DNA of 64,000 nucleotides from a virus. The notes beneath the pieces are model-generated. The model worked only from the letters and a program-made list of their open reading frames with translations. It had not been told where the DNA came from and made no database searches. Within the stretch, counting starts at the first letter, position 1, and the number at the start of each line of letters is the position of its first letter. The position numbers were made by a program, and so were the translations under genes. This document shows, piece after piece, positions 17,717 through 44,512 of this stretch. Location: positions 1 to 64,000 of IMG/VR virus record IMGVR_UViG_3300027896_000010, one strand, 5' to 3'.

Positions 17717-17901
17717 TCATCACTCCACGCGATGTATATGACTCTGCCAAGTTCCTCGAAAAGTTTGTTCATCTCATCTCGATACTCTACCCATGCATTA
17801 TGGGCTTCAACAATACGCTCTTCCAACGGGAACCGAACAGTACGCCCGTCGAAGATGAATCCATGCATCTCCAGTAGCCTTTGCATCTGCTTCTCATTCA
17901 T
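17713..17901 (-). CDS. small hypothetical protein
   Basis: start reassigned to MNEKQ at 17901, overlapping the ligase stop. Confidence 0.5.
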   Translation of the reverse strand: MNEKQMQRLLEMHGFIFDGRTVRFPLEERIVEAHNAWVEYRDEMNKLFEELGRVIYIAWSDE

Positions 17902-19261
17902 CTCTTCCCACCCTCTCTCCGAAAGACTTCGTAGCCAACAACTCTTTGTACCACTCCGGTAGCCCAGCAACCGCCTTGCGCTTAAGGTCTCCACCAAACT
18001 CTTTCCAGAGAAATGCAAGTATCTCGTCCTTACACTCTCCCTCTATATCCAAGTGGACTTCTTTAAGTAGCCGCCCTATGTCTCTCGGCGCAGACTCAAG
18101 CTCACCCTTGTCTGCAAGATGCTGAACAGCTTTCTGCCAACGAGCTTCAGACCTGTACTGCTCACAGAAAACTTCCCATCTGCCTTTGGACTTATTCTCG
18201 CGGTTCCAGTCCTTCTCGTGCTTCTCCTTATACTTCTCGGACACGAATTTACCCATCATCAGCGGAATAGGCTGACCGCCCAACAGGAATGGTCTGGCGT
18301 AGTTCTTGCAAACCACACCCTCTACTTTATTGCCGCCCAGAAAGCTGTCGGTCTCAAGCAGTTCTACCAACTGCTCTATGGACTCGACCATGCCATAGTA
18401 AAGCATTGGCGCTACATCTATCTCTAGAAGCCTAGCATAGTCCTTAAGCTCATCATGAACGCTCACAAACTTCATAGAAGTATCTGACACCCCAAACAAT
18501 ACCAAGTTATTCTCTGGCACACGCTCATAGGCAAGGACATTGTGCCTTGAGGCCCGAAGATACTCAGCGTGGAATACCGTGTTATCAGGTATCCTGTCCT
18601 CTATCGACAATATATAATCGATAGCCTTATCGAACATCTTCTCTGGAAACTCTATGAATATCTCCTTGCCCTTGCTCCGCATACACAACTCTCCATCCAA
18701 CCTGCCGAAATTAAACTGGCTGTTGTGAACGAGAATGTTATTAACCAAGTAATTATGATTGCCTTCAACGCTAATGTCATATTTAGTTTTGTTGTGGGGC
18801 GTAAACGATTCTATTGAAAGAATCTCCCGGGGTTCAACAGGATTACCAGCCAGTTCTCTATGCAACACTCTTTCACCAACAGATATATCGTCAGCCTTGA
18901 CCCAACCTCTCCCGTCAATTTTTATATGGTGATTTGGGGTACAACGCAAGGCGTAACTTTGACCATGATAGCCCTTGACACTTATCTTCATCCAGTCCTT
19001 GGTTGTCCCATTTTTATGCCACCCGTTAATTGAGCAGACCTCCACTAGACCTGTCTCTTCATTAAAAGACAATACGTCCAAGAGCATTCGATTGTTAACA
19101 ATCTTGCCAATCTTCTCCTTGGAACCATCAGCCAAAATCACCAAACTCTCATAATCAAAACAACCATCCACCTTCTCCGTAATTTCGACTGGCTCATTGA
19201 AGAGGTCTCGTATGTAGTCCTGCCCTATAGCGAATATCTTAGGGAATGCCCTAAGCCCCAT
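17894..19261 (-). CDS. Rnl2-like ATP-dependent RNA ligase, intein-interrupted
   Basis: motif I EKVDG|SQF, III FHAEY, IIIa LVLFGV, IV EGVVCK, V KFVSEKYKE. Confidence 0.8.
   Translation of the reverse strand: MGLRAFPKIFAIGQDYIRDLFNEPVEITEKVDGCFDYESLVILADGSKEKIGKIVNNRMLLDVLSFNEETGLVEVCSINGWHKNGTTKDWMKISVKGYHGQSYALRCTPNHHIKIDGRGWVKADDISVGERVLHRELAGNPVEPREILSIESFTPHNKTKYDISVEGNHNYLVNNILVHNSQFNFGRLDGELCMRSKGKEIFIEFPEKMFDKAIDYILSIEDRIPDNTVFHAEYLRASRHNVLAYERVPENNLVLFGVSDTSMKFVSVHDELKDYARLLEIDVAPMLYYGMVESIEQLVELLETDSFLGGNKVEGVVCKNYARPFLLGGQPIPLMMGKFVSEKYKEKHEKDWNRENKSKGRWEVFCEQYRSEARWQKAVQHLADKGELESAPRDIGRLLKEVHLDIEGECKDEILAFLWKEFGGDLKRKAVAGLPEWYKELLATKSFGERVGRDE
18722..19162 (-). mobile_element. 147-aa mini-intein (no endonuclease)
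   Basis: C1 CFDYES, block B CTPNHH, block F YDISVEGNHNY, ends ILVHN followed by Ser+1. Confidence 0.9.
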
Positions 19262-19893: not shown

Positions 19894-20268
19894 CTATAAC
19901 ACCTTGACCAGAATCACGACCAGAACGCCCGATAACAATGTGATAGCACCACCCATAATCCATATGGCTCCCCTGTAGAAATTTATGGTGCTTTCCAAGT
20001 CAGCAATGCGCCTCACAAACCCTTCGGGTGAGAACAACAGCCTATCATATTCTTCAAATTTCTGCCTATACGGACAAAGCTCCCCTCTATGCACTGGGCT
20101 ATCAATAACTTGCGCCTTAGTATCCAAGTCATTCGCAAACTTCTCAAGCTTTATCAGTCTATCGTTTATGCTCTTCAATTGCTCAGCCAGTGTAGCCGTT
20201 GTCAGAGCCAACTGCTCTGCCGCCGAAGTCAGCTTATCCAGTGTTGGTTTATATTCCTCAAACCCCAT
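19894..20268 (-). CDS. coiled-coil protein with C-terminal transmembrane helix
   Basis: heptad-rich N-terminus; GAIWIMGGAITLLSGVLVVILV. Confidence 0.6.
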   Translation of the reverse strand: MGFEEYKPTLDKLTSAAEQLALTTATLAEQLKSINDRLIKLEKFANDLDTKAQVIDSPVHRGELCPYRQKFEEYDRLLFSPEGFVRRIADLESTINFYRGAIWIMGGAITLLSGVLVVILVKVL

Positions 20269-20782
20269 GCGCCTGACTCTCCTTCAAAATCAAAGTAACC
20301 TCTTCCATAGCAGATTGCGCTTGGTCATATGCATCCCCAAGCTTGGCGAATACTTCGATAAGTATCTTCTGGAACTCTTTTTCTTTGGCTACTTCTGCTG
20401 TCGCCGCTACGACATCAATAAGTTCCTTGGGACTGGTCGTCTTGGGGAGAAACTTATCAACACCAATGTTAATTGCTTTTAAGAGGATATCTTTTTCGGT
20501 GTTATTGGATACAACTATTATACCTATATCAGGGCGTTGCGCTTTTGCTTTTTGGGCAAACTCCAGCCCTGCCGCCCTATCAGGAGATTCGTCTGGAAAG
20601 GCAAGGTCTAGGATGACAACGTCAAAGCGTTCATCCCTTATCTGTTTTTCTGCCTCAGACAGGGTGGTACAGACATATGTAACACAACCCGCATCATGCA
20701 GAATCTCCTCTAACAAGAAATCAAAATCATTATCGTCGTCTATAATCAGAACATCATCATCTATCCTAATTTTCGTGTCCAT
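20258..20782 (-). CDS. response regulator receiver-domain protein
   Basis: VLIIDDD acidic pocket, VVILD phospho-acceptor, IIVVS, FLPK lysine. Confidence 0.88.
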   Translation of the reverse strand: MDTKIRIDDDVLIIDDDNDFDFLLEEILHDAGCVTYVCTTLSEAEKQIRDERFDVVILDLAFPDESPDRAAGLEFAQKAKAQRPDIGIIVVSNNTEKDILLKAINIGVDKFLPKTTSPKELIDVVAATAEVAKEKEFQKILIEVFAKLGDAYDQAQSAMEEVTLILKESQAHGV

Positions 20783-21629
20783 TCTCTTTCACTTCCTCTA
20801 AAATAGCATTAGCCCTGTCCATGTTTCTCTGTAACCTGTGAAACAATCCATTAGATGCAAGGATATCGTGTTCCAGTTGAACGGCTCTGGTAATATCCTC
20901 GCCCGTACTAATCGTCGCAATAATCTTGCCATCCCTGTCCCTTATCAGACTGTTATACCAAGACATAGATATTTGTTTACCATTGCAATTCAATATCGTA
21001 TTCTCGTAAGCAGAACTGGTCGCATCTGACACGCCAGAAATAAGCCTTTGGAATTCCAGCTTCACGCACTCTCTCTCATCTTCAGGGACAAAACAATTAA
21101 ACCAGTTATGACCGATAATATCTTCCCTAGAACATTCCAGTATTGCAAGCCCCTTATTGTTAATATCTATTACCGTTTCATCGTGCTGGATTACTATCAT
21201 AAAAACTGGAGCCATATAAAAATATGAATGAGCCATCGAATAGCCATTGCCGAAAACTTCTTTCTGCATCAACTGATAAGACATATCTCTGAATATGCCC
21301 CACATCCCTATAGGATTTCCATCGTCATCTTTTATCAACCACACTCGAAGGTTAACTGGGAATATAGTGCCATCCTTGCGTATATATGCTTTCTCGTAAG
21401 GGTCTGCATGCCCTTTTGTCATTATCTGTTCTCTTACAATCTTCTCTTCAAAACTATGCCATTGCTCTGGAGTTAGGTCTTGATAGGTCAACTTTTTCAA
21501 CTCGTCCAGAGAATAGCCCACCATTGTTTGATACGCCCTATTGGCGTCCATGATATGCCCCTCCATATCAGTCAATAGAATCCCATCTAAACTGGTTTCA
21601 AACATATGCTGGTATCTTGTGTCCATCAC
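20766..21629 (-). CDS. tandem PAS/PAC-domain protein without a kinase domain
   Basis: two PAS-PAC repeats (ILLTD..G.I..AN; YIRKDGTIFPV; IIG.NWF; GEDIT). Confidence 0.85.
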   Translation of the reverse strand: MMDTRYQHMFETSLDGILLTDMEGHIMDANRAYQTMVGYSLDELKKLTYQDLTPEQWHSFEEKIVREQIMTKGHADPYEKAYIRKDGTIFPVNLRVWLIKDDDGNPIGMWGIFRDMSYQLMQKEVFGNGYSMAHSYFYMAPVFMIVIQHDETVIDINNKGLAILECSREDIIGHNWFNCFVPEDERECVKLEFQRLISGVSDATSSAYENTILNCNGKQISMSWYNSLIRDRDGKIIATISTGEDITRAVQLEHDILASNGLFHRLQRNMDRANAILEEVKENGHEN

Positions 21630-22165: not shown

Positions 22166-22390
22166 TTAATCCTGCCATGCATTTTCAAGAGCATCCAAAG
22201 CGGCACCCACTGCAACGGCAGAAGAAACATCATCCATAAGATTTTTGTCCATTAATTCATCCAACAAGCCGTAAACAGAATCCATAAGCCTAGAAACCTT
22301 TGCTTCATACATATCTAAATCGGAGTCATCAGAGCCAAGAACCTCCCTCACTGCCTTCGCTACGACCTGCTCAATCCTCTCTTCATCCAT
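22166..22390 (-). CDS. leader-A acidic protein
   Basis: MDEERIEQVVAKAVREVLG. Confidence 0.75.
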   Translation of the reverse strand: MDEERIEQVVAKAVREVLGSDDSDLDMYEAKVSRLMDSVYGLLDELMDKNLMDDVSSAVAVGAALDALENAWQD

Positions 22391-22406: not shown

Positions 22407-22700
22407 TTAGACCCCTCGCCGGGAATTCTGGTAAGCTATTTCCTTGTCCAGAGCCTTCAAATACTTCTCGACCATATCTGTCAGGCGACTGGTATTCATG
22501 TCCATATCAGACTGGAAATACCACCCAAGGAACTCCTCGTTCTCTGTTCGCCAGTCTGCCAGCAAATCATAAACATCCTCCAAGCCCGACATGGCTTGCT
22601 CCAGCGAAGCAACTAGATTCCCAGTGTCTTCCCAATTGATGTCTCCCAGCACTTCCTTGACCACTTTTGATACTACTGCTTCAAGCCTTTCTTCATCCAT
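22407..22700 (-). CDS. leader-A acidic protein
   Basis: MDEERLEAVVSKVVKEVLG. Confidence 0.75.
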   Translation of the reverse strand: MDEERLEAVVSKVVKEVLGDINWEDTGNLVASLEQAMSGLEDVYDLLADWRTENEEFLGWYFQSDMDMNTSRLTDMVEKYLKALDKEIAYQNSRRGV

Positions 22701-22984: not shown

Positions 22985-23320
22985 CTAGAACGATGGGGGT
23001 AATTCTTTGCCTAGTCTATCCAAGACCTTCCCTGCCAAGTTCAGAGCAGAACCGGCATCATCGCCCTGATTCATCATTGTCCTCAAAATATTGAGAGCCG
23101 CTACCACATTCGAATCCAGCCTTAATGCGTCACTAACAGCAATAGCCGCTTCCCTGCACCACTTGCTGGTATACGCATCATCCATATCAAACTCGAAATG
23201 ATTGACATAATCAGCCAGTTTCTCCATATCAATAATATATCCAATTACAGTATCGCCCCTTTCTGCCAATACTTCTTTCACTACTTTTGATATCACTTCT
23301 TCAAGCCGTTGTTCATCCAT
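22985..23320 (-). CDS. leader-A protein
   Basis: MDEQRLEEVISKVVKEVLA; ATG at 23320 coupled to the upstream TAA. Confidence 0.75.
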   Translation of the reverse strand: MDEQRLEEVISKVVKEVLAERGDTVIGYIIDMEKLADYVNHFEFDMDDAYTSKWCREAAIAVSDALRLDSNVVAALNILRTMMNQGDDAGSALNLAGKVLDRLGKELPPSF

Positions 23321-23712
23321 TACCATTCCTCCTCTAATCCGATTTCTTTTAACAGGTCGGGAACCGAAGTCATCTGGTCTGGGTCTTCTGCCCATACACG
23401 CAGATGCGGAATTATATATGCATCCATCCTTGCCGCAGTATTTGAAGAGCCTACATACTCTGCCGATTCAAACTGTGACTTCACAGCCTCTGCTAGTTCT
23501 ATAGCCTCATAAATTTTTTCCTCAAGCTCTTTGATGGCACCAGCCAGTTCTTCTACTTCAGTGTCTCGATTTTCTCTTTCCTCTTCACCAAGTTCGTCAT
23601 CTTCGTCATCAAACTCGTCGTCTGCAATATGCTCAATATGCATAGCACTCTTCACAACTCGTTCCACCATGTCCTCAAGCTCTTCTATTTCATAGCAATC
23701 AAAATCTGACAT
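23320..23712 (-). CDS. acidic protein with divergent leader-A
   Basis: EELEDMVERVVKSAM. Confidence 0.65.
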   Translation of the reverse strand: MSDFDCYEIEELEDMVERVVKSAMHIEHIADDEFDDEDDELGEEERENRDTEVEELAGAIKELEEKIYEAIELAEAVKSQFESAEYVGSSNTAARMDAYIIPHLRVWAEDPDQMTSVPDLLKEIGLEEEW

Positions 23713-23723
23713 CCTAATCCCTC

Positions 23724-24428
23724 CTACATAAAACCGATATCCTGTTCGACTGTAATAGGCTCGTCCTTAGGGCTAAGCAATTGCTGAAGTTTCTCAGGCG
23801 GTGCCAAATCAAGTGGTTCCGTATTTACAAAATCCATCAACTGCAAGGCATCCAGCATTACCTTGGTGGTACGTTTCCTACCACCCTCGTCCCATTCTAC
23901 TATGGCAAAATTGGGAGTAATCTCTATCACCGTTATCCTCTGACCCTTGGATACTCGCACTGGAAACCCATTGGGGTATCTGACGGTAGCGGTGTCGCCC
24001 TCTTCTAGTTCCCTGAATGCCAGCTTAGCTACGTGTTGTACTACTTTATTAAGGTCTTCAATATAATTGTCCACTGCAGATAACAGGTCGGCTTGGACAT
24101 CTCCATTCTCTAACAGTTCCTCTGGAAGACCATCGTATTTCTTAAGCAACCGAATGATATCAAATGGGATAGTGGGAAAAAATGCCGTAGCGGGGATTCC
24201 CTTGAGCTTGTTATAGGTGAACATCAATGCTGGCTTTACCCTGCCCATTTCTACATCCCCACCTATCAATGCTTTCAACAACGTATCCTTAATCTCTCTC
24301 AAGGCATAAGTTGAATCTATCAATGCTGGATAGTATTCGTCTATGGAATGCTGGGGCGGGGGCAACGCTTTGGGCTTCGACTCCTCTATTGCTTCTGCTA
24401 TGACTTCTTTCAGCGAATAATACCGCAT
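23724..24428 (-). CDS. hypothetical protein, possible C-terminal SH3-like barrel
   Basis: 234 aa; GDTATV..VSKGQRITVIEITPNFAIVEW. Confidence 0.6.
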   Translation of the reverse strand: MRYYSLKEVIAEAIEESKPKALPPPQHSIDEYYPALIDSTYALREIKDTLLKALIGGDVEMGRVKPALMFTYNKLKGIPATAFFPTIPFDIIRLLKKYDGLPEELLENGDVQADLLSAVDNYIEDLNKVVQHVAKLAFRELEEGDTATVRYPNGFPVRVSKGQRITVIEITPNFAIVEWDEGGRKRTTKVMLDALQLMDFVNTEPLDLAPPEKLQQLLSPKDEPITVEQDIGFM

Positions 24429-24452
24429 TGCTGTCCCCCCTAGGGCTGCCTT

Positions 24453-24995
24453 TTATATCAGCCCTAATTCAACTAACCAAGATGGATATCCATGAGGACA
24501 GGCCGTGCAGTCTGGTTCCACGCGACACCCATCTGTGGCTTTGGCTACACCATCGTACATCCATTTCTCCATCGTCTTGATGCTGGGCTGTTTGGTCTTG
24601 GGAGTCTTCTTCTGCCGATGCTCTCTCAAAAATTCCCCTGCTTCCTCTGGAGAGATATCCGCAAGAACTTCCTTGACCACCTTACTGATTATCTTCGCAA
24701 GCCTATCTTCATCCATGGTGACTTCCCCCTCGTTATAGTCATACAACTTATCATCAACCCAGTATCTAGGGTCGCTATAGTCTAGCCCTGACTTCAACCC
24801 GCCCTCATATTGCTTGCTACATTCCAACAGAGCCTTCTTCAATTGATGAACCTGCTGTTCTAAATCCGTTATCTTATTGATATAAGCAGTGCATTGGTCT
24901 TTGTGATACATCTTCATCTCGTCCATCTTATGAAGAACTTCTCCAACAGAAGGGTCTTTGCTTAGTGGGGGCAGACCACCTGATTTCTCTTCCAT
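24453..24995 (-). CDS. two-part ORF with internal leader-A start at 24716 and C-terminal Cys/His motif
   Basis: GAGGGG-N-ATG MDEDRLAKIISKVVKEVLA; DGCRVEPDCTACPHG. Confidence 0.7.
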   Translation of the reverse strand: MEEKSGGLPPLSKDPSVGEVLHKMDEMKMYHKDQCTAYINKITDLEQQVHQLKKALLECSKQYEGGLKSGLDYSDPRYWVDDKLYDYNEGEVTMDEDRLAKIISKVVKEVLADISPEEAGEFLREHRQKKTPKTKQPSIKTMEKWMYDGVAKATDGCRVEPDCTACPHGYPSWLVELGLI

Positions 24996-25294
24996 TACTC
25001 TCTCCAGTCTATATTCTTTCTCTCTTCAGTCTTTCTGGTTTTTATGAGAAAGACTTCTAGGGCATCATAGACAGCAGTCAATCTTTCTTTTATCTCCATG
25101 GATTCAGCGATGCCAGCTTCCCCAGAAATCTTCTCCAGCTCATCCTCGGCTTCACCTATCAGATTAAGAGCTTTGTGGGTAGCCACATCATCTTCCTCGC
25201 TCCAGTCTGAAGGATAGGCTCCCTCTTCGGTATCCCAAGCCAAAACCTCTTTCACCACTTTTGATATCACTTCTTCAAGTCTTTGCTCATCCAT
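24995..25294 (-). CDS. leader-A acidic protein
   Basis: MDEQRLEEVISKVVKEVLA. Confidence 0.75.
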   Translation of the reverse strand: MDEQRLEEVISKVVKEVLAWDTEEGAYPSDWSEEDDVATHKALNLIGEAEDELEKISGEAGIAESMEIKERLTAVYDALEVFLIKTRKTEERKNIDWRE

Positions 25295-25295: not shown

Positions 25296-25724
25296 TTATT
25301 CCTCCGGCTTCACAGGTCGCCGTCTCTCTTGCATCCTCTTGCTCTGCTCTTCGAGGAACCATTCGTAATTATCCTTTGAGGCTCTCGCCCTGAATCGGAG
25401 ATTGTTAACAGCATCCTCAACCTTTGGCTTGAAGTCCTTGACGGTACGAGATACATCCTGAAGGTTGCCTATGACAGAATACCTGTAACTCATATACTCC
25501 CACTGTACCGTATTGGAATTGTTATGAAGATTCTCTTCAATGGTATCAGCTAGCTCAGCGACACTTTCTAGCTGAGTCACAAGAGCCTCTAGCTCATCGG
25601 TTACATCAGCAACCCTGCCTATCATGCCACCCATATCATCTCTAGCATCATACTTGAGTGCCATCTTCTTACCACCCAGTACTTCTGCGACTGCTTCTCG
25701 GACTATCCTTTCAATATCATCCAT
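25296..25724 (-). CDS. leader-A coiled-coil protein
   Basis: MDDIERIVREAVAEVLG..KKMAL. Confidence 0.72.
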   Translation of the reverse strand: MDDIERIVREAVAEVLGGKKMALKYDARDDMGGMIGRVADVTDELEALVTQLESVAELADTIEENLHNNSNTVQWEYMSYRYSVIGNLQDVSRTVKDFKPKVEDAVNNLRFRARASKDNYEWFLEEQSKRMQERRRPVKPEE

Positions 25725-27312: not shown

Positions 27313-28536
27313 CTATTTCTTCTCTTCCTTCTTTTCCTTTACGGTCTCCTTCGCTTTCTCGGCAGAAGGAGTGGCACTCTTGCCCATCTTGTCTACTACC
27401 TCGTCATGCACCCAGTCGAGAATATCGTCTGCATACTCACGCACGACATCATAGACCAGAGCCTCGTCGCCCTTCTCTTCCTTCGCCCATCGTGCGACAT
27501 CGGTCATGAAGGATTGAATGTCTCCAAACACATATCCACTGTCTTGGTCAACTGGCATAGAATCCCCTACATCCAGCGTCTCTGGGAGCGTAGCTGGCTC
27601 CTCAGGGGCTTCTGGAGCCATCGGAGCCTCTGCCCCTATGTCCATGTCACCCTCGTCGCCCTTACCGGCAGGTGGGACGGGAGGGCCTTCAGGCTCAGCC
27701 GCTTCCTTCTCAATCTCCTGCTTAACCAACCTCGCTATTAACTTTACAAGCTCTTCGTCTTTCATGCTGTTCTCCTTTATGTAAGCTGATTTTTCTATAG
27801 GCCAGTAATTTCCACCTGATTCTTTCATATCTTTTTCTGGAACAGTTTGCATAAATCTTTTTACTACGACTGGATTATTGTCAGCACACGTTAACATATC
27901 TTCATCTTTAAACATTATGCAAACTCCATTACTGGAATTGCCTTTACTAGAAGTTAAGTAAGCCATCATTGTAGGTACGTAAGGAACAAGTTCGTCACCT
28001 TCTGGATGATAACCCCCAAAATCCAAATTTTTCTTTTTGTAAGTTGTTAGAATTCTCTTTATCTTTACTGAAGTAGGAGCGTACCAAACCCACGCACCTC
28101 TTCCAGTAATATGGTCATACTCTACTCCTGTATAAACCCAAGGTGTGCTGGGGTCAGTTAACATCTCTTGCTCTGCCAATTCCAACTTATTCAACCATGC
28201 TTGCCTTATGTCGCTATGTTCGTATTGCTTATCTCTATCAATAGGCCCAAACCTCTCTTCGTCCATCCTATCCATGTACGCATCTTCAGATTCATCTTCA
28301 CGCATACCATCTGCCAGCACCTCCTTGACCACCTTTGCTACTACCTGTGCAATCCTCTCTTCATCCATGATTCTCTCCTTTATCTTGCTAGCTTTATCAT
28401 GCGAGAACTCACTCCCGCAGTCCTGACAGCGGAACCATTCCTTAGCTCCAAGAGTACCCAGCGGGACTCCTATGCCTGAGCAATACGGGCAACTGGGATT
28501 CTCCAGCGGTTCATCTAACTCATCATAATCTTCCAT
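27313..28536 (-). CDS. composite ORF: zinc ribbon plus two internal leader-A units (starts 28368 and 27765)
   Basis: CPYC..CQDC; MDEERIAQVVAKVVKEVLA; MKDEELVKLIARLVKQEI; each preceded by AAGGAG. Confidence 0.7.
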   Translation of the reverse strand: MEDYDELDEPLENPSCPYCSGIGVPLGTLGAKEWFRCQDCGSEFSHDKASKIKERIMDEERIAQVVAKVVKEVLADGMREDESEDAYMDRMDEERFGPIDRDKQYEHSDIRQAWLNKLELAEQEMLTDPSTPWVYTGVEYDHITGRGAWVWYAPTSVKIKRILTTYKKKNLDFGGYHPEGDELVPYVPTMMAYLTSSKGNSSNGVCIMFKDEDMLTCADNNPVVVKRFMQTVPEKDMKESGGNYWPIEKSAYIKENSMKDEELVKLIARLVKQEIEKEAAEPEGPPVPPAGKGDEGDMDIGAEAPMAPEAPEEPATLPETLDVGDSMPVDQDSGYVFGDIQSFMTDVARWAKEEKGDEALVYDVVREYADDILDWVHDEVVDKMGKSATPSAEKAKETVKEKKEEKK

Positions 28537-28537: not shown

Positions 28538-29422
28538 CTATTTCCCCCTCTTCAGCCAACTGAACCAGCCCTTCTTTACCTTGCCCTTACGGCAATAGTT
28601 GCTCGTCCTCAGTTTGAATTGCTTATAGATTGCACAGTTCTTGCATATGCAATGCGAAGGTGTCGGTGTCGGCGTAGGTGTTGGAGTCGGTGTAGGTGTA
28701 GGTGTGGGTGTCGGAGTTGGCGTAGGTGTAGGTGTAGGAGTAGGAGTAGGAACTGGAATCGGCACTGGCTGCACAGCAGCCCATGCTTCTCCCGGCGATT
28801 CGATACCATTTAACAGCTTCTGGAAATCAGAGATGAGGATTTTGAACTTGCCCTGCAAGCCCCAAGTCGTTCCCCATGAATTAACAGCGTCCAGATACAT
28901 ACTATCCTCACCGTTCTGGAACCAGCAGTGACCCCCCTGAACCGAACCAGTCGGCTTGATAACGCCATTCACTGGGTCAAACATATCGCTAGTCCACTCG
29001 GTTCCCACGAGAACAGATCCATGTTTTTGAAGCCAGTCCACGATTTCTGTCATGGTATTCAGCTTGGCGTAGCCACTTATCCAGCCCTTGTCTTTTGCTA
29101 CCTTCAATCCGTCTCTCACATAAGCCCCATCTTCGGCTCCCGGCTCTCCCTCCAGTATTTTGATATCAAGATAAAAGCCATGGCACTGTTCCCCGGAGAG
29201 ATGCGGGTCGATGTGATTCTCATCATCACAATTCAGCATACCTCCAGTGCCATATGCCACACACTCATTCGTGCTTCCTTGGTCAAGGATTTCGGTATCC
29301 GACCAGATAACTGGGACGGCTATCCCCTCGTCTATCATCGATTCTAATTGCTTGACGGTATAGTCCCTTGGGTCATCGACAAGGGGCTTTCTGCCTAGAC
29401 CGAACTGCTTATCCCCACTCAT
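28538..29422 (-). CDS. papain-like (C1) cysteine peptidase with Pro-Thr linker
   Basis: DQGSTNEC, GGHC, NSWG.TWG. Confidence 0.85.
   Translation of the reverse strand: MSGDKQFGLGRKPLVDDPRDYTVKQLESMIDEGIAVPVIWSDTEILDQGSTNECVAYGTGGMLNCDDENHIDPHLSGEQCHGFYLDIKILEGEPGAEDGAYVRDGLKVAKDKGWISGYAKLNTMTEIVDWLQKHGSVLVGTEWTSDMFDPVNGVIKPTGSVQGGHCWFQNGEDSMYLDAVNSWGTTWGLQGKFKILISDFQKLLNGIESPGEAWAAVQPVPIPVPTPTPTPTPTPTPTPTPTPTPTPTPTPTPTPSHCICKNCAIYKQFKLRTSNYCRKGKVKKGWFSWLKRGK
28665..28772. repeat. (Pro-Thr)n coding tandem repeat
   Basis: degenerate 6-nt repeat GG(T/A/C)GT(A/C/T/G) encoding roughly 18 PT units. Confidence 0.9.
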
Positions 29423-31161: not shown

Positions 31162-31605
31162 CTACGGTTTCTCTACTGTTCGCTCAACATCAGATAGCCA
31201 GTCAAGTATTGGCCTCATACCTTCGCCATCAATGCTCCAAGCAGGTTCGCCACCATGCAGATTCAAACCCCCCTGCCCTAATCTATTAGAATCTTCAAGC
31301 AATGTCTCAATATAATAGGCAGAGACAAACTGGCTTGTATCCAGTGAATAGAACTCCGCAATCGGCATCGTCAGGAACTTCTTGTGGCTCTCACTTTCTT
31401 TGTCTACTATTCCTGTGTCATTAGTGTAGACGATGTTGACGAGCCACTTACCCACACACCCATCGTCATTAGGGGTTTCAAAGACCTTGGAAATACCCGT
31501 CTCGGTAAAATAGTCACCAGCGCGAGGGTCTTCGCTACGCATATTAATCCCCAACACCTCTCTCAGTACCTTTGATATTATTTCTTCAAGCCTATCTTCG
31601 TCCAT
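31162..31605 (-). CDS. leader-A protein
   Basis: MDEDRLEEIISKVLREVLG with AAGGGAG SD. Confidence 0.72.
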   Translation of the reverse strand: MDEDRLEEIISKVLREVLGINMRSEDPRAGDYFTETGISKVFETPNDDGCVGKWLVNIVYTNDTGIVDKESESHKKFLTMPIAEFYSLDTSQFVSAYYIETLLEDSNRLGQGGLNLHGGEPAWSIDGEGMRPILDWLSDVERTVEKP

Positions 31606-32366: not shown

Positions 32367-32579
32367 TCAAGGCGGTGGGGCTGGCGGTGTCCAAGTATCT
32401 GGGTCTACCGTGTCCATGACAGTAAAATCTGCTGGGATGCTCTCATCAGATTCCATGAACGACTCTAGGAACTTCCCCAACTGAACCCATTTCTCTTCAT
32501 CTGGCTTAAAAGCCATATACTTCCCGCCTATGGCTTCAAGACCGCTCCACAGGACATACGCTAATTTCGGGTATGACAT
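32367..32579 (-). CDS. stand-alone copy of the shared ~62-aa C-terminal module
   Basis: YPKLAYVLWSG..GKYM.F.PDE.KWV.LG..LESFMESD. Confidence 0.75.
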   Translation of the reverse strand: MSYPKLAYVLWSGLEAIGGKYMAFKPDEEKWVQLGKFLESFMESDESIPADFTVMDTVDPDTWTPPAPPP

Positions 32580-36588: not shown

Positions 36589-36885
36589 TTACTCTGCCCT
36601 TCTGTCGTCAAACATCTGAAGCACTTCATCATATATGCGTCTGATTGCCTCTTCTTTGGCTCTTTCAAACCACATGTCTACTTCCTTTTTCGCCATGCTT
36701 TTGACTTCACCAGTACTGGCATTGGGCTTATTCTTCACAAACCAATTGAATATGGCAGTCGCCTCGGCTCGGACTTCGACATCAGGCATAGAAGGATATG
36801 ACCAAGCTTCCTTCGACAGGCCTCTATCTTCTCCAAGAACTTCATCAACCACTTTTGATATGATTTGGTCTAGCTGGTCGCCCAT
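36589..36885 (-). CDS. leader-A protein
   Basis: MGDQLDQIISKVVDEVLG. Confidence 0.72.
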   Translation of the reverse strand: MGDQLDQIISKVVDEVLGEDRGLSKEAWSYPSMPDVEVRAEATAIFNWFVKNKPNASTGEVKSMAKKEVDMWFERAKEEAIRRIYDEVLQMFDDRRAE

Positions 36886-37108: not shown

Positions 37109-37360
37109 TTAGTCCATTAAACTTTTAATAATTTGCAATGCTCGTGCTGTATCCTTTCCCAATCCAGTGATTACATCACCAAGCCACTTTTTGGCACCTT
37201 CCAAATCGCCATGGTTTATATCTTCGAGCGCCCAAGGCAATTTAGTTTCGGCGTAATAACGCATCCCACCAATAATCTCTAGAAGCTGAGACATGTCCGA
37301 CCATCCCAACACTTCATGAACTGCTTCCTTTACTATCTCTCCAATGCGCTCTTCATTCAT
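37109..37360 (-). CDS. leader-A protein
   Basis: MNEERIGEIVKEAVHEVLG. Confidence 0.72.
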   Translation of the reverse strand: MNEERIGEIVKEAVHEVLGWSDMSQLLEIIGGMRYYAETKLPWALEDINHGDLEGAKKWLGDVITGLGKDTARALQIIKSLMD

Positions 37361-38141
37361 TCTCTTCTTCCTCCAAGTCGCTCAAGATATCATCAAGCTG
37401 GTCAATGCAATCCGCTAACTGGTCTATGGCTTCATCTATTGATGAGACAGGATTAAGCTTAAGGTCTATAAGCTGTTGCCCTATCTCAGCGATATCTGTC
37501 TGCCACTGTTCGGCATCATCTTCTATGCCATCTTCTTGCAGTTCGTCAAATGGCTCTTCCTCTTCACCCAGTACTTCTCTCAGTACCTTTGATATCACAG
37601 CTTCAAGCTTATCTTCATCCATAGCTATCTCCTTTATACTTGCCGCTGGTCGTAATGACCAAGGCCCTTTGGCGCTCCACTCTTCTGGCTCATTCTGATT
37701 ATACTCAGCAGTACCTATCTCCTGACCGCACTCTGGGCAGTGGAGAATCCAGCATGCAGGTTCGAAATCGCAATCATCATTGCTCTCGTATTCCTTATCC
37801 GCTTTCGATTCACTACCTTTCCATCCACAGAAATCACAGGTCAATAACCTTGTAGGCTCTCCCCATCTTGCTTCCTTGTGGTACTTCATATATTGCTCAC
37901 CGAACTCTGTAAAGCCATCCTCGGTAGTCCAGTAGACTTTGTCTATGTCCTCATCTGCGAACCACGCTTGTACCCTCGCTGGGACTCCGTATTGTTCGCT
38001 CAGCTTCTGAGCTTTCTTGATGGCATTAGGGACATTCGTCGCGCCCTGCCCACTTGACCTCCAGCCACTTGGTGTGCCAGATATCTTTTTCCCGAATTGG
38101 AGATATACTTGATAGGCTCCATAGCCACCATGTTTAGTCAT
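37353..38141 (-). CDS. composite ORF: N-terminal domain, zinc ribbon, internal leader-A unit (start 37622)
   Basis: CDFCGW..CPECG; AAGGAG-N7-MDEDKLEAVISKVLREVLG. Confidence 0.7.
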   Translation of the reverse strand: MTKHGGYGAYQVYLQFGKKISGTPSGWRSSGQGATNVPNAIKKAQKLSEQYGVPARVQAWFADEDIDKVYWTTEDGFTEFGEQYMKYHKEARWGEPTRLLTCDFCGWKGSESKADKEYESNDDCDFEPACWILHCPECGQEIGTAEYNQNEPEEWSAKGPWSLRPAASIKEIAMDEDKLEAVISKVLREVLGEEEEPFDELQEDGIEDDAEQWQTDIAEIGQQLIDLKLNPVSSIDEAIDQLADCIDQLDDILSDLEEEENE

Positions 38142-38325: not shown

Positions 38326-38844
38326 CTAGGTTCCTTGGTTAAGCTGATGTCTATCGATAGTGACGTCTGCCCTTCGATATGCATCATTTCCATATTGCAT
38401 TTTGAATGCTTCATACTCTGCCGACATTATGTTCTCATAGAAATCTCTTGCTGTTTCTCCAGTATGAGTATCAACCCCCAACTCTATGCTTTTATCATCA
38501 TCATAGGTCGAATCATTTGATGGGAAGATATCCCAGCCTCTATCATAGTTGACTAGGACATTGGCCCAAGAGTCATTGGGGACCCTAGCCGAAGTATCCG
38601 ATATCGTGAGCCTAGAAATATGACCGTTGTTTATGCCGAACTCAGATGGCTCATCAAAGAACTGAACGTTAGCCTTAAGGTTGTCCTTGCCAACCAATAC
38701 ATAATTACTCCCTGAATCTACATTTACCGTATAGCCCATCTTCCTCAAGATGCTTGCGAAGTGTTCTAGTATCTGGCTCTCCTCTTCCTCCTGCCCCAAA
38801 ACTTCCTTTACCACTTTTGATATGATTTGCTCTAGTTCGTCCAT
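38326..38844 (-). CDS. leader-A protein
   Basis: MDELEQIISKVVKEVLG. Confidence 0.75.
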   Translation of the reverse strand: MDELEQIISKVVKEVLGQEEEESQILEHFASILRKMGYTVNVDSGSNYVLVGKDNLKANVQFFDEPSEFGINNGHISRLTISDTSARVPNDSWANVLVNYDRGWDIFPSNDSTYDDDKSIELGVDTHTGETARDFYENIMSAEYEAFKMQYGNDAYRRADVTIDRHQLNQGT

Positions 38845-38919: not shown

Positions 38920-39177
38920 CTATATTCTTGTCCAGAACCCTATTTCATATTCTGTTAATTTATACAGGTCATCATATGTCTTGAACTCTCCCTTATCTAT
39001 CGCCTCACTCAATCGACTTAAACGATGCTTAATCTCAGTAATATCGCCATCTAATGACTCTTGATAAAATTTCTGTTGCCTTTGATATAGCTCATCAGAT
39101 TCCTCTTCTGCCAAATTGGGATTGGCCCCCAGCACCTCTTTGACTACTTTTGATATAATTTTTTCTACTTCGTCCAT
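38920..39177 (-). CDS. leader-A protein
   Basis: MDEVEKIISKVVKEVLG. Confidence 0.75.
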   Translation of the reverse strand: MDEVEKIISKVVKEVLGANPNLAEEESDELYQRQQKFYQESLDGDITEIKHRLSRLSEAIDKGEFKTYDDLYKLTEYEIGFWTRI

Positions 39178-39429: not shown

Positions 39430-39723
39430 TTACTCAGCACTGCCCTGCCACTTAGGATTCATTTGATATTCTCTGATAATATCTCTGGCGTCTGCCAGAT
39501 GGGCATAGATTCTCTGAACATCACCAATAGGGAGATAGGCATCCTGTTCACTACCAGTGTACATATGGTCTTTGATACCATACATTATTCTCGCCGCATG
39601 ATGTGTCGCTTCCCTCACCTCCAAATCCAGACTCTCTAGGTCTTGGTCGAAAGTCTTTCCTGTATCAGCCAGTACTTCTTTGACCACTCTGGTCACTACC
39701 TCTGTTACTCTGGCTTCGTCCAT
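39430..39723 (-). CDS. leader-A protein
   Basis: MDEARVTEVVTRVVKEVLA. Confidence 0.75.
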   Translation of the reverse strand: MDEARVTEVVTRVVKEVLADTGKTFDQDLESLDLEVREATHHAARIMYGIKDHMYTGSEQDAYLPIGDVQRIYAHLADARDIIREYQMNPKWQGSAE

Positions 39724-39733: not shown

Positions 39734-40375
39734 CTAGATATGTTCCTCCCAGTATTCGGTAAGCTTCTCCGCTAGCTCCTGTGCATCGTGAGGAATTCGC
39801 CTGACCGCCTTCATCATCAGCATAGGCTCACCAGACATCTCCATCCTAGCGTTCACATAATCCCTGATGCCTATCATGGCATCGCCTATCTCTTCGGTGA
39901 TGTGCAGGATTTCTTCTTTCAGTTCTGCCCTGTCGGAAGCCATCTTGCCCTCAAGCCCAAAGCCTACCCCTGCCTTCATCTCCCCGCACACAGGACACCA
40001 GTATTCATAGACGCCCCCGTACATCTTGGTTTTCTGGAGAGGCGCTCCGCAGTCGGCACACTTTGCGGCTAAGACTTCCTTGACCACCTTTGATATGATT
40101 TGCTCTAGCTCATCCATGATATCCTCCTTGTAGCTGGCGGCGACTAGTTCGACCTGCCCCCTGCCACGCAATACGTCAGCACAACTATTCAACAGTCTCG
40201 TCAACTCTTCGTAATCGACCCCATCATCACGAGTCTCGGCAAACAACTCCGCATTGGTAATTAGGTTTTCAATTACACGCAAGAAGCCCTCACTGTCCCA
40301 GAACAGTTCATCTACTCCACTTACGCTTTCCTTGACTACCTTTGCTATGATTTCATAAAGCCGTTGCTCACTCAT
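39734..40375 (-). CDS. tandem leader-A ORF (second unit starts 40117) with zinc ribbon
   Basis: MSEQRLYEIIAKVVKESV; AAGGAGG-N-MDELEQIISKVVKEVLA; CADC..CPVC. Confidence 0.72.
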   Translation of the reverse strand: MSEQRLYEIIAKVVKESVSGVDELFWDSEGFLRVIENLITNAELFAETRDDGVDYEELTRLLNSCADVLRGRGQVELVAASYKEDIMDELEQIISKVVKEVLAAKCADCGAPLQKTKMYGGVYEYWCPVCGEMKAGVGFGLEGKMASDRAELKEEILHITEEIGDAMIGIRDYVNARMEMSGEPMLMMKAVRRIPHDAQELAEKLTEYWEEHI

Positions 40376-40387: not shown

Positions 40388-41065
40388 CTATGGGAGAACG
40401 ACTACATCTTCAAGATAAGTCCTGAGGTATTTCTGGAAGCCTTCGATGTCTGCGTCTATCTCCTCCATGAAATTCTCCACAACTCCCTCGACATCCCAAC
40501 TAAAAGCTGGCCCCTGATAATGATTGGTCCAGTATTGATGAGCCTCTTGTGCCAACCTCATAGCCATTTCTTCAAGATTGCGACTGTTCAATCTGCTTTC
40601 CAAGCTGACATAGCTATCCACAAATTCATCTTCATCGTTCTCGTAATCAACCGCTTCCTTCACCACAGCACCAGCCGCCTTCTCTTCTGTCCTCTGGGGC
40701 TTGGCCTTTACCGATGGCTTAAAATCCTTACATACGGTACAGCGCCATCCCGGTGGGTTCTTCCTACCCTCTCCACCTGCCCTGTTATGGAGCCTTTTGC
40801 CCTCGCCGTACTTCTCGTCCTGATAATCGTTCTTGCAAGTGCATGGCAGGACTTTGGTATTCTCTGCGGCTATAACTTCTGCAATTACCCTATCTACAAC
40901 TTCTTCAAGCTGTTTCTCGTCCACTAGCTCGTCCTCCAGCTTCCCTACAACATCTGTAATCTGTTCCCCACTAAGAGCATCTTCCTCTTGCCCTATCACT
41001 TGCTCTGTGGCTAGAACTTCCATGACTACTTTTGATATGATTTGCTCAAGCTTTTCTTCGTCCAT
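40388..41065 (-). CDS. double-leader-A protein with small Cys/His zinc domain
   Basis: MDEEKLEQIISKVVMEVLA; DEKQLEEVVDRVIAEVIAA; CTC..H..CTVC. Confidence 0.72.
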   Translation of the reverse strand: MDEEKLEQIISKVVMEVLATEQVIGQEEDALSGEQITDVVGKLEDELVDEKQLEEVVDRVIAEVIAAENTKVLPCTCKNDYQDEKYGEGKRLHNRAGGEGRKNPPGWRCTVCKDFKPSVKAKPQRTEEKAAGAVVKEAVDYENDEDEFVDSYVSLESRLNSRNLEEMAMRLAQEAHQYWTNHYQGPAFSWDVEGVVENFMEEIDADIEGFQKYLRTYLEDVVVLP

Positions 41066-41077: not shown

Positions 41078-41386
41078 CTAGTCTTCGAGCGTTTCTGTAT
41101 TTATTGAGAGATAAACAAGCCTTGCTTCCGTAAACAGTTCTTCCATCTTCTGGAACTTCTGTGTGAGGTCTGCATACTTGAGATTCGTTTCGTCTGGCTC
41201 CATCCCATATATCTGGCTTATAGCCGCCCTCACAGAGTCTATGCCATTGGCAGCATACTCAGCCGCATTGTCAGCCAATCTCTGCACTTCCTCTGCCGAA
41301 GTACCTTCCCAGTCTATTTCCTTAACTGCTTCCTTGGCTTGCCTCATTGCTCTCGACACTATAGCTTCTAGTTTTTTATCATCCAC
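41078..41386 (-). CDS. leader-A protein (divergent)
   Basis: GTG start, MDDKKLEAIVSRAMRQA. Confidence 0.65.
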   Translation of the reverse strand: MDDKKLEAIVSRAMRQAKEAVKEIDWEGTSAEEVQRLADNAAEYAANGIDSVRAAISQIYGMEPDETNLKYADLTQKFQKMEELFTEARLVYLSINTETLED

Positions 41387-41494: not shown

Positions 41495-41797
41495 TTATAT
41501 CCCTCGTTGTTTTTGATATGGATTGTCCCAATGCTCTTTTTCCCAATTTCTTTTATGTCTTATCGGTGTACCATCGTACTCTGTTAGTCTAGAAATCTTA
41601 GGCCAACGTACCCTTAATTCTTTTTGGGGGTCACTTGGGTCTTCAATAATTATGGCTTCATCGTTAACTTCCAAAACATTAAAATTATCTCTCATGCCTT
41701 TTTCAAGTATGTCAAAAATTTGTTGGTAAGAATTCCCTGCCCCAATTACTTCTCTCACAGCTTCCCTGACTATTCTCTCTATCTGTCGTTCGTCCAT
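41495..41797 (-). CDS. leader-A protein
   Basis: AGGAGG SD, MDERQIERIVREAVREVIG. Confidence 0.72.
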   Translation of the reverse strand: MDERQIERIVREAVREVIGAGNSYQQIFDILEKGMRDNFNVLEVNDEAIIIEDPSDPQKELRVRWPKISRLTEYDGTPIRHKRNWEKEHWDNPYQKQRGI

Positions 41798-42224: not shown

Positions 42225-42740
42225 TTATTCTTCCTCTTCTTCATATTCTTCAGGTTCAGGCTCATCTTCAAACAAAGTATATCTTTCTTCATGGTGGAAT
42301 CGGAATAGGACATCAGAGAACATATCTGGCAGCAGCCTGTCTATGTTATTTCTGCAATAGATATAATCTTTCGGGCTATCTGCATTCTCATTAAGAAACC
42401 CGAAAGTGTCTGACAATATCTTCTTAAAACCCTCTAGCACCATACCATAAGCCTCTTGAAACAAAGACTCCATCTCCATTGCTACCTTCCGACTACCCCT
42501 CGACCTTCTTATAGCTTCGTCTCGCTGGTCTTTCAGAGCATCCCTGTTCTCTGTGAAGAGGTCTGAGTAGTCACCCTTAGCGAAACTCTCCCACTTCTCA
42601 AACATGAAATCTTTCGGGAGTGGGTCTATTCCAGCTTTCGCACACACTTCTTCATACTCTGCATAGCGACCCTCTAGGTCTTGTGGATTCAGTATCTCGC
42701 TCACGACTCTAGCAATGATTTCATTTAGCTGGTCATCCAT
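42225..42740 (-). CDS. leader-A protein
   Basis: MDDQLNEIIARVVSEIL; internal RKVAM junction. Confidence 0.72.
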   Translation of the reverse strand: MDDQLNEIIARVVSEILNPQDLEGRYAEYEEVCAKAGIDPLPKDFMFEKWESFAKGDYSDLFTENRDALKDQRDEAIRRSRGSRKVAMEMESLFQEAYGMVLEGFKKILSDTFGFLNENADSPKDYIYCRNNIDRLLPDMFSDVLFRFHHEERYTLFEDEPEPEEYEEEEE

Positions 42741-43000: not shown

Positions 43001-43270
43001 TCAGGGAAACATCTCCAGCCATTGAGTCAGGTCGCCACATACGTCCAAGGCTTTATCCAGATACTCTTTGATATTCCCACTCTCACCAGATACCTTCCCA
43101 GATATCGTTCCCTTCGTCTGGAGGAAGTCGAATATCGGTTCGAGCTTTGCTGAGGCTCCCGACAGTTCCGTATATATCGTGTTAAGAGCGGTAAGCAGGT
43201 CGAACCTGTCTACCGCTAGGACTACCCTTATGGCATCTGCTGTGATGGCTTCGAGCCTGTCTTCATCCAT
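43001..43270 (-). CDS. leader-A protein
   Basis: MDEDRLEAITADAIRVVLA. Confidence 0.72.
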   Translation of the reverse strand: MDEDRLEAITADAIRVVLAVDRFDLLTALNTIYTELSGASAKLEPIFDFLQTKGTISGKVSGESGNIKEYLDKALDVCGDLTQWLEMFP

Positions 43271-43281: not shown

Positions 43282-43545
43282 TCAGTCCAATAAATCGTTT
43301 GAAAGCCTTCTAAGGTCTGCCAGCCTGTTTGAAATCACACTTAGCCAGAAGGACATTCCTTCTTCGAGTACTTCTCTAGGAGAGAACTGAGGGACTCGCT
43401 CCTTATCCTTACAGGCTTCCATTATCGAGTGTGCCGCTTGGAAGATATCGTATGCCTTATCCGATATTTCTTCGAACTCTTCTCCGCTCTGGAAAACCTG
43501 ACGAACAGTCTCGGCTATAATTTCTTCGAGTCGCTCTTCGTCCAT
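43282..43545 (-). CDS. leader-A protein
   Basis: MDEERLEEIIAETVRQVF. Confidence 0.72.
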   Translation of the reverse strand: MDEERLEEIIAETVRQVFQSGEEFEEISDKAYDIFQAAHSIMEACKDKERVPQFSPREVLEEGMSFWLSVISNRLADLRRLSNDLLD

Positions 43546-43560: not shown

Positions 43561-43836
43561 TTAGACCTTATGCTCAGAGCATTTACAATTATCGTGGATA
43601 TCCCCGGGCATCAGACCCCCAGCATACTCTCCCCCTGCGGGTCGCCTCTCCCCATCCATCTCTTGACAAGCCTCACAGCATCCGGGCATACTCGTCCATT
43701 CATACTCTTCTTCGTCGTCGTCCTGACCGTAGACCTCGAAATGTTCCTTGATACCCATTAAGCTACTCCCAATCCCAGTTACAGCTATTAATAAGCCACC
43801 CAACTTCATCAGATACCAAGTTAGCAATCTGGTCAT
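43561..43836 (-). CDS. small membrane protein with C-terminal Cys/His motif
   Basis: hydrophobic N-terminus; CCEACQ..HDNCKC. Confidence 0.45.
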   Translation of the reverse strand: MTRLLTWYLMKLGGLLIAVTGIGSSLMGIKEHFEVYGQDDDEEEYEWTSMPGCCEACQEMDGERRPAGGEYAGGLMPGDIHDNCKCSEHKV

Positions 43837-44512
43837 CTATAATCTCTTCATCCCAATCATCAGGAACTTCAACTTTTACTGTGTCGGGCAAATCGATATC
43901 AACATCTTCTCCCAACTCTTCGTCATAAGTATCCCAGTTGATATCAGTTACAATAGCAACCCTTGCAGTTTTATAGATAGCCCCAACCACCCTAGCTATA
44001 ATATCATCAATCTTTTCATCCATACTGTAACTGGCTACCGCTCCAAGCCCCAAGCCCTCTAAAGTTTCATTGAGCTTCTCGGCTAGGTCAGGGTTAGAAT
44101 GGACGAGACGCTTATAGATATACTTCCACGAGCCACCACGAATCCGAACATCTTCCACCATATGCTCTAGCTCTGGCATGGCTTCCAGTACCTCATCTTC
44201 CCATGGCAAGTTCACAGCAATCTCAACTCGTTTAGCCTCAGTTATTTCAGCAACTACTCTAGTTATAATTTCATCAAGATTGTCCATGCCATTTCTCCTA
44301 GCATAGTATGGCATGTCATAAGGAACGACCATGGGTCGTTTACTGATAGGCTGGTCTTCGCCACGTTGGTAGTCCTGACCAGTAGGGGTGGAGATGTTTC
44401 CTCGGAAGGGGTCTAGAAATCCTGTGTAGATTTCGTAGTTGAGAGCTTCATCCTCAACTTCTTTTTCTTCTTCTTCTTTTTCTTTTCTTGGTCTAGATTT
44501 ATATCCCATCAC
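43763..44512 (-). CDS. composite ORF with two internal leader-A units (starts 44286 and 44023)
   Basis: MDNLDEIITRVVAEI; MDEKIDDIIARVVGAI. Confidence 0.7.
   Translation of the reverse strand: MMGYKSRPRKEKEEEEKEVEDEALNYEIYTGFLDPFRGNISTPTGQDYQRGEDQPISKRPMVVPYDMPYYARRNGMDNLDEIITRVVAEITEAKRVEIAVNLPWEDEVLEAMPELEHMVEDVRIRGGSWKYIYKRLVHSNPDLAEKLNETLEGLGLGAVASYSMDEKIDDIIARVVGAIYKTARVAIVTDINWDTYDEELGEDVDIDLPDTVKVEVPDDWDEEIIDDQIANLVSDEVGWLINSCNWDWE

Follow-up and report, generated by a model that had tools for sequence, protein, structure and literature searches.

A short leader conserved at the peptide level on about 25 otherwise unrelated proteins of an uncultured phage, and its possible role as a docking tag

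We investigated a short leader peptide that recurs on many small proteins of an uncultured phage, known from a single virus record of 193,437 bp (IMG/VR record IMGVR_UViG_3300027896_000010), whose first 64 kb are the stretch of DNA analyzed here (64,000 nucleotides, hereafter the window). About 25 copies of the leader lie between 22.1 and 44.5 kb of the window, and our results identify the repeat as a protein module rather than a DNA element. About 25 small proteins bear one and the same predicted helix of 17–19 residues, the peptide having been preserved although its DNA drifted; the remaining parts of these proteins (hereafter, the cargos) are unrelated to one another. In our judgment, there is an even chance that the leader is a docking tag bringing a changing cargo to one common partner, for which the likeliest place would be the assembling prohead.

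Selection on the peptide and on the DNA

A previous reading, made from the sequence alone (hereafter, the sequence-only reading), had stated that the leader is conserved as a peptide and not as a DNA repeat. Indeed, the copies at 23264–23320 and 25238–25294 (minus strand) have an identical 19-residue translation although 7 of their 57 bases differ; every difference is synonymous, and the codon pairs involved are exactly those it had listed (GAA/GAG, CGG/AGA, GTA/GTG, GAA/GAG, GTA/GTT, and GCA/GCT). The same holds for the copies at 38797–38844 and 40070–40117, which have one 16-residue translation in common and show 6 differences in 48 bases, in third codon positions only. When 7 (or 6) substitutions were placed at random, the peptide was left unchanged in approximately 1e-5 (3e-5) of the trials.

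The ratio between the proportions of nonsynonymous and synonymous differences (pN/pS) was well below 1 across the copies, as expected from purifying selection on the peptide. The 23 strong copies (253 pairs, compared on a 17-codon core) gave a pooled pS of 0.78 and a pN of 0.33, with a pN/pS of 0.42, and the 15 full-length copies gave a pS of 0.81 and a pN of 0.26, with a pN/pS of 0.33; pS is at or above the Jukes-Cantor saturation limit, so the formal synonymous rate (dS) is infinite and the values of 0.33–0.42 are upper bounds. The next 19 codons downstream of the leader, used as control, had a pN of 0.70 and a pN/pS of 0.92. The pairwise identity of the leaders at codon positions 1, 2, and 3 was 0.59, 0.74, and 0.375, respectively, and this order (second above first above third) is the one expected under coding constraint.

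Third codon positions and flanks were not conserved like the peptide. Indeed, upstream of the leader the identity was raised at positions −14 to −7 only (0.41–0.63, corresponding to the Shine-Dalgarno [SD] motif), and it was approximately 0.24 elsewhere, against a background of 0.26. DNA-level conservation irrespective of frame was not found, and synonymous sites were saturated. Thus, neither of the two outcomes that the sequence-only reading had named as contrary to it, a dN/dS near 1 or an equal conservation of third positions and flanking DNA, was observed: purifying selection acts on the peptide, and we conclude that the repeat is no attC-like site.

The earlier argument against an attC-like recombination site also agrees with other searches. 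The mRNA-sense segments from −30 to +57 folded no better than their shuffles (23 copies, mean z 0.11, with one copy below −2), and the same folding test on the 23 copies found no imperfect inverted-repeat hairpin of the attC type in the leader segments. The Rfam scan of the region 22–45 kb gave no match, and PF00589 (Phage_integrase, the family of IntI-type tyrosine recombinases) had no match in the genome, with 14/14 positive controls. The companion claim, that the repeat is not a simple ribosome-binding cassette, stood with a qualification: the similarity upstream is only that of a generic SD, a motif found at 60% of all genes, yet a ribosome site accompanies each copy (among the internal ones, 7/8), so that the repeated unit is the SD plus the leader.

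A residue of DNA-level similarity is nonetheless present, and it qualifies the statement that the peptide, and not the DNA, is conserved: codon identity is slightly above its null, and the excess lies mostly in one short island. At the DNA level the leader shows up as a family of diverged repeats (58–77 bases at 60–83% identity), a visibility expected for any coding motif present in many copies. At identical residues, codon identity was 0.428, compared with 0.345–0.348 under genome or cargo codon usage and 0.389 under the pooled codon usage of the leader itself, and codon sharing did not rise with the peptide similarity between copies (Spearman 0.06). The island consists of the six bases ATA-TCA (leader columns 10–11 in the window region 22–45 kb, e.g., at 23288–23293 and 25262–25267), which occur in 9/10 of the copies with Ile10-Ser11 (codon identity 0.80); the other columns of these copies are randomized (0.41), and the remaining copies likewise (0.39). 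Ser11 is encoded by TCA in 10/11 copies, against a genome share of 0.16 (P 9e-8), and TCA is preferred neither at gene starts nor in the gene of the major capsid protein (MCP). A phage tRNA was considered as the cause and rejected, only tRNA-Gln, tRNA-Asp, and tRNA-Glu being encoded. The island is a caveat to selection on the peptide alone.

The ribosome sites of the internal copies are also part of this residue. An SD-like motif with a start codon is present at 7/8 internal copies, compared with 12% of ordinary internal in-frame ATGs (P 3e-6); the copies with their own SD and start are those ending at 24716, 28368, 37622, 40117, 40924, 44287, and 27765. The orthologous internal copy on a metagenome fragment (L013:387–404) has an SD-like motif and a start codon as well. 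Internal leaders may therefore also be translated on their own, and these sites suggest nested in-frame genes or old gene fusions. Furthermore, the copies at 31605 and 37622 share 81% of 21 upstream bases, which means that the ribosome site was copied along with the leader in at least one recent duplication of the DNA. A k-mer search for a common promoter in the intergenic gaps returned nothing usable.

It is the synonymous-site analysis that separates a tag from a recombination site or a regulatory repeat. That the repeat is a nucleic-acid element (a recombination site, a ribosome-site cassette, or an RNA signal), with the peptide as its by-product, is highly improbable and already largely refuted by these data: although such an element would account for the diverged repeat family, for the SD at the copies, internal ones included, for the synonymously conserved island, and for the mosaic junctions that coincide with the leader borders (see below), pS is saturated while the peptide is kept. 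The remaining synonymous columns are randomized as well (0.39–0.41 vs a null of 0.35–0.39), and the absence of a folding excess, of an Rfam match, and of a tyrosine recombinase, together with the generic nature of the SD, points in the same direction.

The leader helix, its copies, and their cargos

The leader is predicted to be an amphipathic alpha-helix of 17–19 residues. AlphaFold2, run on the alignment of the 23 copies, placed a helix at residues 3–20, with a predicted local distance difference test score (pLDDT) of approximately 80, followed by coil, and the hydrophobic moment was 1.69, compared with 0.80 for shuffled leaders. The conserved positions comprise an acidic start, hydrophobic residues at 6, 9, 10, 13, 14, 17, and 18, Glu16 (in 22/23 copies), and a Gly or Ala cap at 19, after which the alignment shows no conservation. 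The triplet Val/Leu/Ile14-x-Glu16 is nearly invariant, but conserved residues (17–19) come after it. Among PDB proteins, the best matches of the leader profile were de novo designed helical-repeat and cage proteins (E down to 5e-4), which suggests that the leader is near to an idealized helix-packing sequence, made to pack against other helices. The AlphaFold2 model of the 111-amino acid (aa) protein with its one ortholog had a low-confidence pLDDT of 48.5, and only its secondary structure was used, cautiously. A protein-atlas search with residues 1–24 gave single-helix matches of no meaning. A SUMO-like or lysine-tagging motif in the leader was considered and dropped, the lysines often being Arg.

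The genome is 95% complete according to CheckV, and almost all of its genes are on the minus strand. Its MCP shares 41% identity with the MCPs of cluster C mycobacteriophages and Gordonia phages, and the MCP search for related loci found no close relative. On the 193-kb genome, the hidden Markov model (HMM) of the leader detected 23 strong and about 5 weak copies, on the minus strand only, and an independent genome search found 25 copies. A degenerate pattern of the 8-residue core had 6 matches in the window, all on the minus strand, and none in 100 shuffles. About a third of the copies (8–10) are internal to their open reading frame (ORF), and the others are N-terminal.

Three leader-like copies fall outside the window, within the structural module. 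The one at genome position 166917 is the N-terminus of an 84-aa protein, that at 167709 is internal to a 109-aa zinc-ribbon protein, and that at 176276 is internal to a 243-aa protein flanked by the prohead protease and by a 1194-aa scaffold-like protein.

The copies in the window are as follows (E values are matches to the leader HMM; the translation was checked for the copies ending at 22390, 22700, and 25724):
22334..22390 (−), N-terminal, 74-aa protein (22166–22390), E 1e-8
22644..22700 (−), N-terminal, 97-aa protein (22407–22700), E 2e-9
23264..23320 (−), N-terminal, 111-aa protein (22985–23320), E 1e-9; ortholog P0019 on fragment L011
24660..24716 (−), internal, 180-aa ORF (24453–24995), own SD and ATG, E 1e-9; same layout around the internal leader in the relative P0022
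25238..25294 (−), N-terminal, 99-aa protein (24995–25294), E 7e-10
25674..25724 (−), short form, second subtype (Arg-Glu-Ala-Val core), 142-aa protein, E 1e-6
27709..27765 (−), degenerate leader-like copy, internal, 407-aa ORF (27313–28536), SD and ATG, below the HMM threshold; DNA repeat families D1/D3
28312..28368 (−), internal, same 407-aa ORF (27313–28536), own SD and ATG, E 3e-7
31549..31605 (−), N-terminal, 147-aa protein, E 6e-10
36832..36885 (−), short form, 98-aa protein, E 7e-9
37304..37360 (−), second subtype, 83-aa protein, E 2e-7
37566..37622 (−), internal, 262-aa ORF (37353–38141), own SD and ATG, E 5e-8
38794..38844 (−), short form, 172-aa protein (38326–38844) with DUF7678, E 3e-9
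39127..39177 (−), short form, 85-aa protein, E 2e-8
39667..39723 (−), 97-aa protein (39430–39723), E 1e-7
40067..40117 (−), short form, internal, 213-aa ORF (39734–40375), E 8e-9
40319..40375 (−), diverged, N-terminus of the same 213-aa ORF (39734–40375), E 3e-4
40868..40924 (−), internal, 225-aa ORF (40388–41065), GTG and SD, E 4e-5
41009..41065 (−), N-terminus of the same 225-aa ORF (40388–41065), E 1e-8
41330..41386 (−), weak leader-like N-terminus, 102-aa protein, E 0.12
41741..41797 (−), second subtype, 100-aa protein, E 9e-7
42687..42740 (−), short form, 171-aa protein, E 2e-7
43214..43270 (−), weak leader-like N-terminus, 89-aa protein, E 0.13; repeat family D1
43489..43545 (−), diverged, 87-aa protein, E 5e-4
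43967..44023 (−), weak leader-like copy, internal, 249-aa ORF (43763–44512), ATG without SD, E 1.2
44237..44287 (−), short form, internal, same 249-aa ORF (43763–44512), own SD and ATG, E 4e-7

The cargos range from 55 to more than 300 residues, without a common pattern. In the all-against-all BLAST of the leader-stripped cargos, nothing fell below E 0.008 except nested self-matches, and the genome has elsewhere a single paralog, which is short and zinc-ribbon-like. Nearly all cargos are acidic, with an isoelectric point (pI) of approximately 4–5 against a genome median of 5.3. Pfam and PHROGs gave almost no matches for these ORFan cargos, the one recognizable domain being DUF7678, in the protein at 38326–38844. 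In Gardnerella and Clostridia-type phages, DUF7678 occurs as stand-alone proteins of 70–75 aa that start with the domain and have no leader; the leader on 38326–38844 is thus an addition. In this protein approximately 35 residues separate leader and domain, and most of the other cargos have no defined domain from which a linker could be judged. A further, very acidic protein of 130 aa (23320–23712, minus strand) begins with a degenerate, leader-like helix close to the N-terminus; it shares 57% identity with its ortholog at L013:2264–2659.

The leader profile was compared with 1.84 billion representative proteins and with 5.8 billion word-indexed ones, and the matches were mostly this genome's own. 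No foreign family was found among the 1.84 billion representatives, and P0019, P0020, and P0022 were the only foreign leader-bearing proteins among the relevant matches; the other foreign matches were long proteins, matching in several stretches and over profile positions 9–38 only, and were not inspected individually. Searches with the 99-aa protein, with the leader alignment, and with the DUF7678 protein found only proteins of this genome, phage Myrna has no leader copy, and degenerate DNA patterns of the leader core had only chance, non-leader matches in IMG/VR and JGI metagenome contigs. The three foreign proteins are encoded on metagenome fragments of 1–2.7 kb (L011–L013), syntenic with the window at 22.4–25 kb, and between the window and its orthologs there dS is saturated and omega is approximately 0.1.

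Comparison with these fragments showed that leader and cargo have discordant histories. The cargo of the protein at 39430–39723 has an ortholog on L013 (45% identical) that bears the other leader subtype: the two leaders share only 5/19 residues, and that of the L013 gene matches the window copy ending at 41797 at 14/19. P0022 and the ORF at 24453–24995 have in common the N-terminal domain (44%) and the leader, and the C-terminal cargo of P0022 has no homolog in this genome. P0020 and gene 1 of L011 carry the leader on cargos absent from this genome. The leader therefore marks mosaic junctions, the tagged repertoire turns over quickly, and these comparisons indicate that leader and cargo have been exchanged as modules. 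Another domain-level rearrangement was seen in the same neighborhood: L013:1044–2252, the homolog of the window gene 23724–24428, has an extra N-terminal region of approximately 165 residues, with DUF1281_C.

A common partner for the leader and other readings

Because a broad hydrophobic face and a near-invariant Glu16 are kept on 25 unrelated, co-encoded proteins, we infer that the leader binds one common partner. The head would be its destination, a more tentative step; the prohead is ranked first because leader-like helices occur in three proteins of the structural module, one of them adjoining protease and scaffold, and because the pattern matches that of the internal proteins of T-even phages, which are diverse and have only the targeting sequence in common. 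Peptide-level selection, predicted helicity, unrelated cargos, and mosaic history are the established part of this docking-tag reading. In the mechanism that we propose, the hydrophobic face and Glu16 would bind the common partner, or other copies of the helix; the varied cargo proteins would thereby be gathered at one place, likeliest the assembling prohead, and might then be delivered alongside the DNA, as with the T4 capsid targeting sequence (CTS). Recombination at the borders of the leader has joined it to cargos and swapped it between them.

A fuller version, possible but rather doubtful, sees in the leader the address label of a sorting system private to the phage, docking inside an HK97-type head, with about 25 pre-made effectors injected with the DNA and the leader itself serving as swap joint. 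The dock might be the MCP, the scaffold, or the 243-aa leader-bearing core protein, by analogy with the cargo-loading peptides of encapsulins, and the mostly acidic effectors could be, for example, anti-defense proteins.

Several observations weigh against the head as destination and against the docking tag more generally. The cargos are acidic, whereas T4 internal proteins are basic, and about a third of the tags are internal instead of N-terminal. When orthologs are compared, the leader is conserved no better than the remaining protein (pN 0.255 vs 0.258); its rate is thus ordinary, and what is unusual is its sharing by non-homologous proteins. Within long open frames, the motif Arg-Lys-Thr/Ser-Ala, the apparent head-cleavage motif of this phage, is confined to three places: the N-terminus of the MCP, the 1194-aa scaffold-like protein, and a pair of large ORFs at approximately 181–186 kb that contain it seven times. 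These occurrences are at genome positions 171656, 175233, and 181254–185888; the motif is in no ORF of the leader block, where the match at 34591 belongs to a 24-residue frame. The phage appears to have already a separate polyprotein route for head cargo. The prohead protease matches only a PHROG "head maturation protease," its family is not assignable by Pfam or PDB sequence search, and no match to the T4-type Peptidase_S77 was found in the genome, in a search whose control was also silent. T4-like processing of the leader is, therefore, unsupported. A complex prediction with the MCP, the 243-aa head-module protein, and the 99-aa leader protein had a score of 0.00, which is no evidence either way.

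Some of these points would suit a self-associating or condensate-forming tag, which would gather the co-expressed proteins into a cytoplasmic complex, or dock them on a non-capsid hub (e.g., a host target), without their being packaged into the head: the acidity of the cargos and the missing head-protease motif fit head cargo poorly, and the broad hydrophobic face resembles designed helix-bundle sequences. Residues 1–11 resemble the N-termini of Escherichia coli EutC and EutE, the best in the eut operon though not significant, and aggregation or condensation has been reported as an effect of encapsulation peptides (PMC4594438, PMC12339742). We hold this reading unlikely: the phage has no shell gene of bacterial microcompartments (BMCs), the head is suggested by the three leader-like copies of the structural module, one of which adjoins the prohead protease, and the near-invariant Glu16 suggests a specific partner and not generic bundling. 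Less probable again is an old paralog family in which the bodies have diverged beyond recognition and the N-terminal helix is kept for folding, stability, or expression, with no common partner. The genes do stand in tandem on one strand in one block, and the pair 31605/37622, with its shared upstream bases, points to a DNA-level duplication; but the DUF7678 cargo has leaderless homologs in unrelated phages, the histories of leader and cargo are discordant between relatives, leaders also lie between two domains, some of them without Met, and the cargos have neither a common size nor a common pattern.

The combination of a conserved leader with hypervariable bodies is also the pattern of leader-guided processing systems, so that the leader could be the recognition tag for a phage enzyme that cuts or modifies the tagged proteins, in the manner of the leaders of bacteriocins and of ribosomally synthesized and post-translationally modified peptides (RiPPs). 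Candidate enzymes would be a papain-like C1 peptidase encoded in the block (28538–29422) and, in another part of the genome, a cassette for ubiquitin-like conjugation. A small residue (Gly or Ala) closing the leader and the mid-block position of the gene with papain-like Cys, His, and Asn-Ser-Trp-Gly signatures (by eye) agree with this. However, a double-glycine motif is absent, Arg often takes the place of the leader lysines, which are hence not obligatory conjugation sites, the cargos have the size of folded proteins and not of short peptides, and proximity alone ties the peptidase to the leader; we therefore give an enzyme tag only a small probability.

Other features of the neighborhood were observed in the window, all on the minus strand. 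The product of 28538–29422, a 294-aa protein with the C1 signatures just mentioned, also has a Pro-Thr repeat linker and a basic Cys-rich tail. The leader block is interrupted by genes that look like those of surface or fiber proteins: two of 630 aa (32608–34500) and 680 aa (34537–36579), with near-identical internal tandem repeats (84-nt and 51-nt units), and one of 70 aa (32367–32579), the three sharing a C-terminal module of approximately 50 residues (DNA repeat family D4). By eye, a ligase-like 455-aa ORF (17894–19261) and a 1083-aa anaerobic ribonucleotide reductase (44924–48175) look intein-interrupted, and a PAS-like sensor protein and a receiver-domain protein (20258–21629) lie just downstream of the leader block, an unusual signaling pair for a phage.

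Comparison with known systems

If the docking-tag reading is true, one short helix would be a sorting code for a tenth of the phage genes, far more than the handful of proteins that bear the CTS in T4, and this in a lineage whose capsid and protease differ from those of T4. A protein-level tag with swapping at its borders would explain how a fast-changing payload stays compatible with one fixed loading machine. Moreover, candidate injected effectors could be listed directly from genome sequence, and the leader would be a small portable tag for loading foreign proteins. In the literature, no paper was found on a leader family this large.

Conserved N-terminal parts with variable partners are also known from MuF-domain polymorphic toxins and phage polyvalent proteins, in which they are thought to carry variable C-terminal effectors into the capsid. 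Those conserved parts are entire domains of head proteins, whereas the leader is one helix attached to small proteins that stand on their own. Multi-copy RiPP precursors (e.g., prochlorosins) and double-glycine bacteriocin leaders likewise combine a conserved leader, hypervariable bodies, and one partner. The evolutionary signature is the same, but the bodies here have 55 to more than 300 residues, a Gly-Gly site is lacking, and neither a modification enzyme nor a transporter was identified.

The internal proteins of T-even phages are diverse and have only a conserved targeting sequence in common (PMC3012670, PMC9026906). The T4 CTS, carried by IPI, IPII, IPIII, and Alt (PMC9026906, PMC3012670, PMC5694885), and the leader are both short peptides conserved among diverse small proteins, and in both cases the cargo set turns over between related phages. 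The CTS is N-terminal and has 10–20 residues; the leader has 17–19 residues and 23 strong copies on unrelated cargos, and its hydrophobic-x-Glu triplet (positions 14–16) resembles the T4 protease site (Leu/Ile-x-Glu), at which the T4 propeptide ends and is cut off by a gp21-type protease, although in the leader conserved residues follow the triplet. Conversely, the tagged proteins are about 25 here and a handful in T4, the cargos are acidic here and basic in T4, about a third of the tags are internal here, and the MCP of this phage is related to those of cluster C mycobacteriophages and not to that of T4. The two are probably not homologous in sequence; among the 1.84 billion representatives, the leader profile matched no foreign family.

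The encapsulation peptides of BMCs (EutC, EutE, PduD, and PduP; PMC4594438, PMC11157265, PMC12339742) and the leader, as predicted, are both amphipathic helices of approximately 18 residues, which stand at the N-terminus or between domains on unrelated cargo. A poorly conserved linker separates encapsulation peptides from the functional domain; the leader may be followed by such a break, its Gly or Ala cap being the last conserved position. The N-termini of E. coli EutC and EutE scored 5.5 and 0.7 bits against the leader HMM, values that are not significant, and PF00936 (BMC shell) had no match in the 193-kb genome, with positive controls. BMC cargos are metabolic enzymes, whereas those of the leader are not. 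The leader appears, on the whole, to work like a CTS or an encapsulation peptide while belonging, by its sequence and by the machinery that accompanies it, to neither class.

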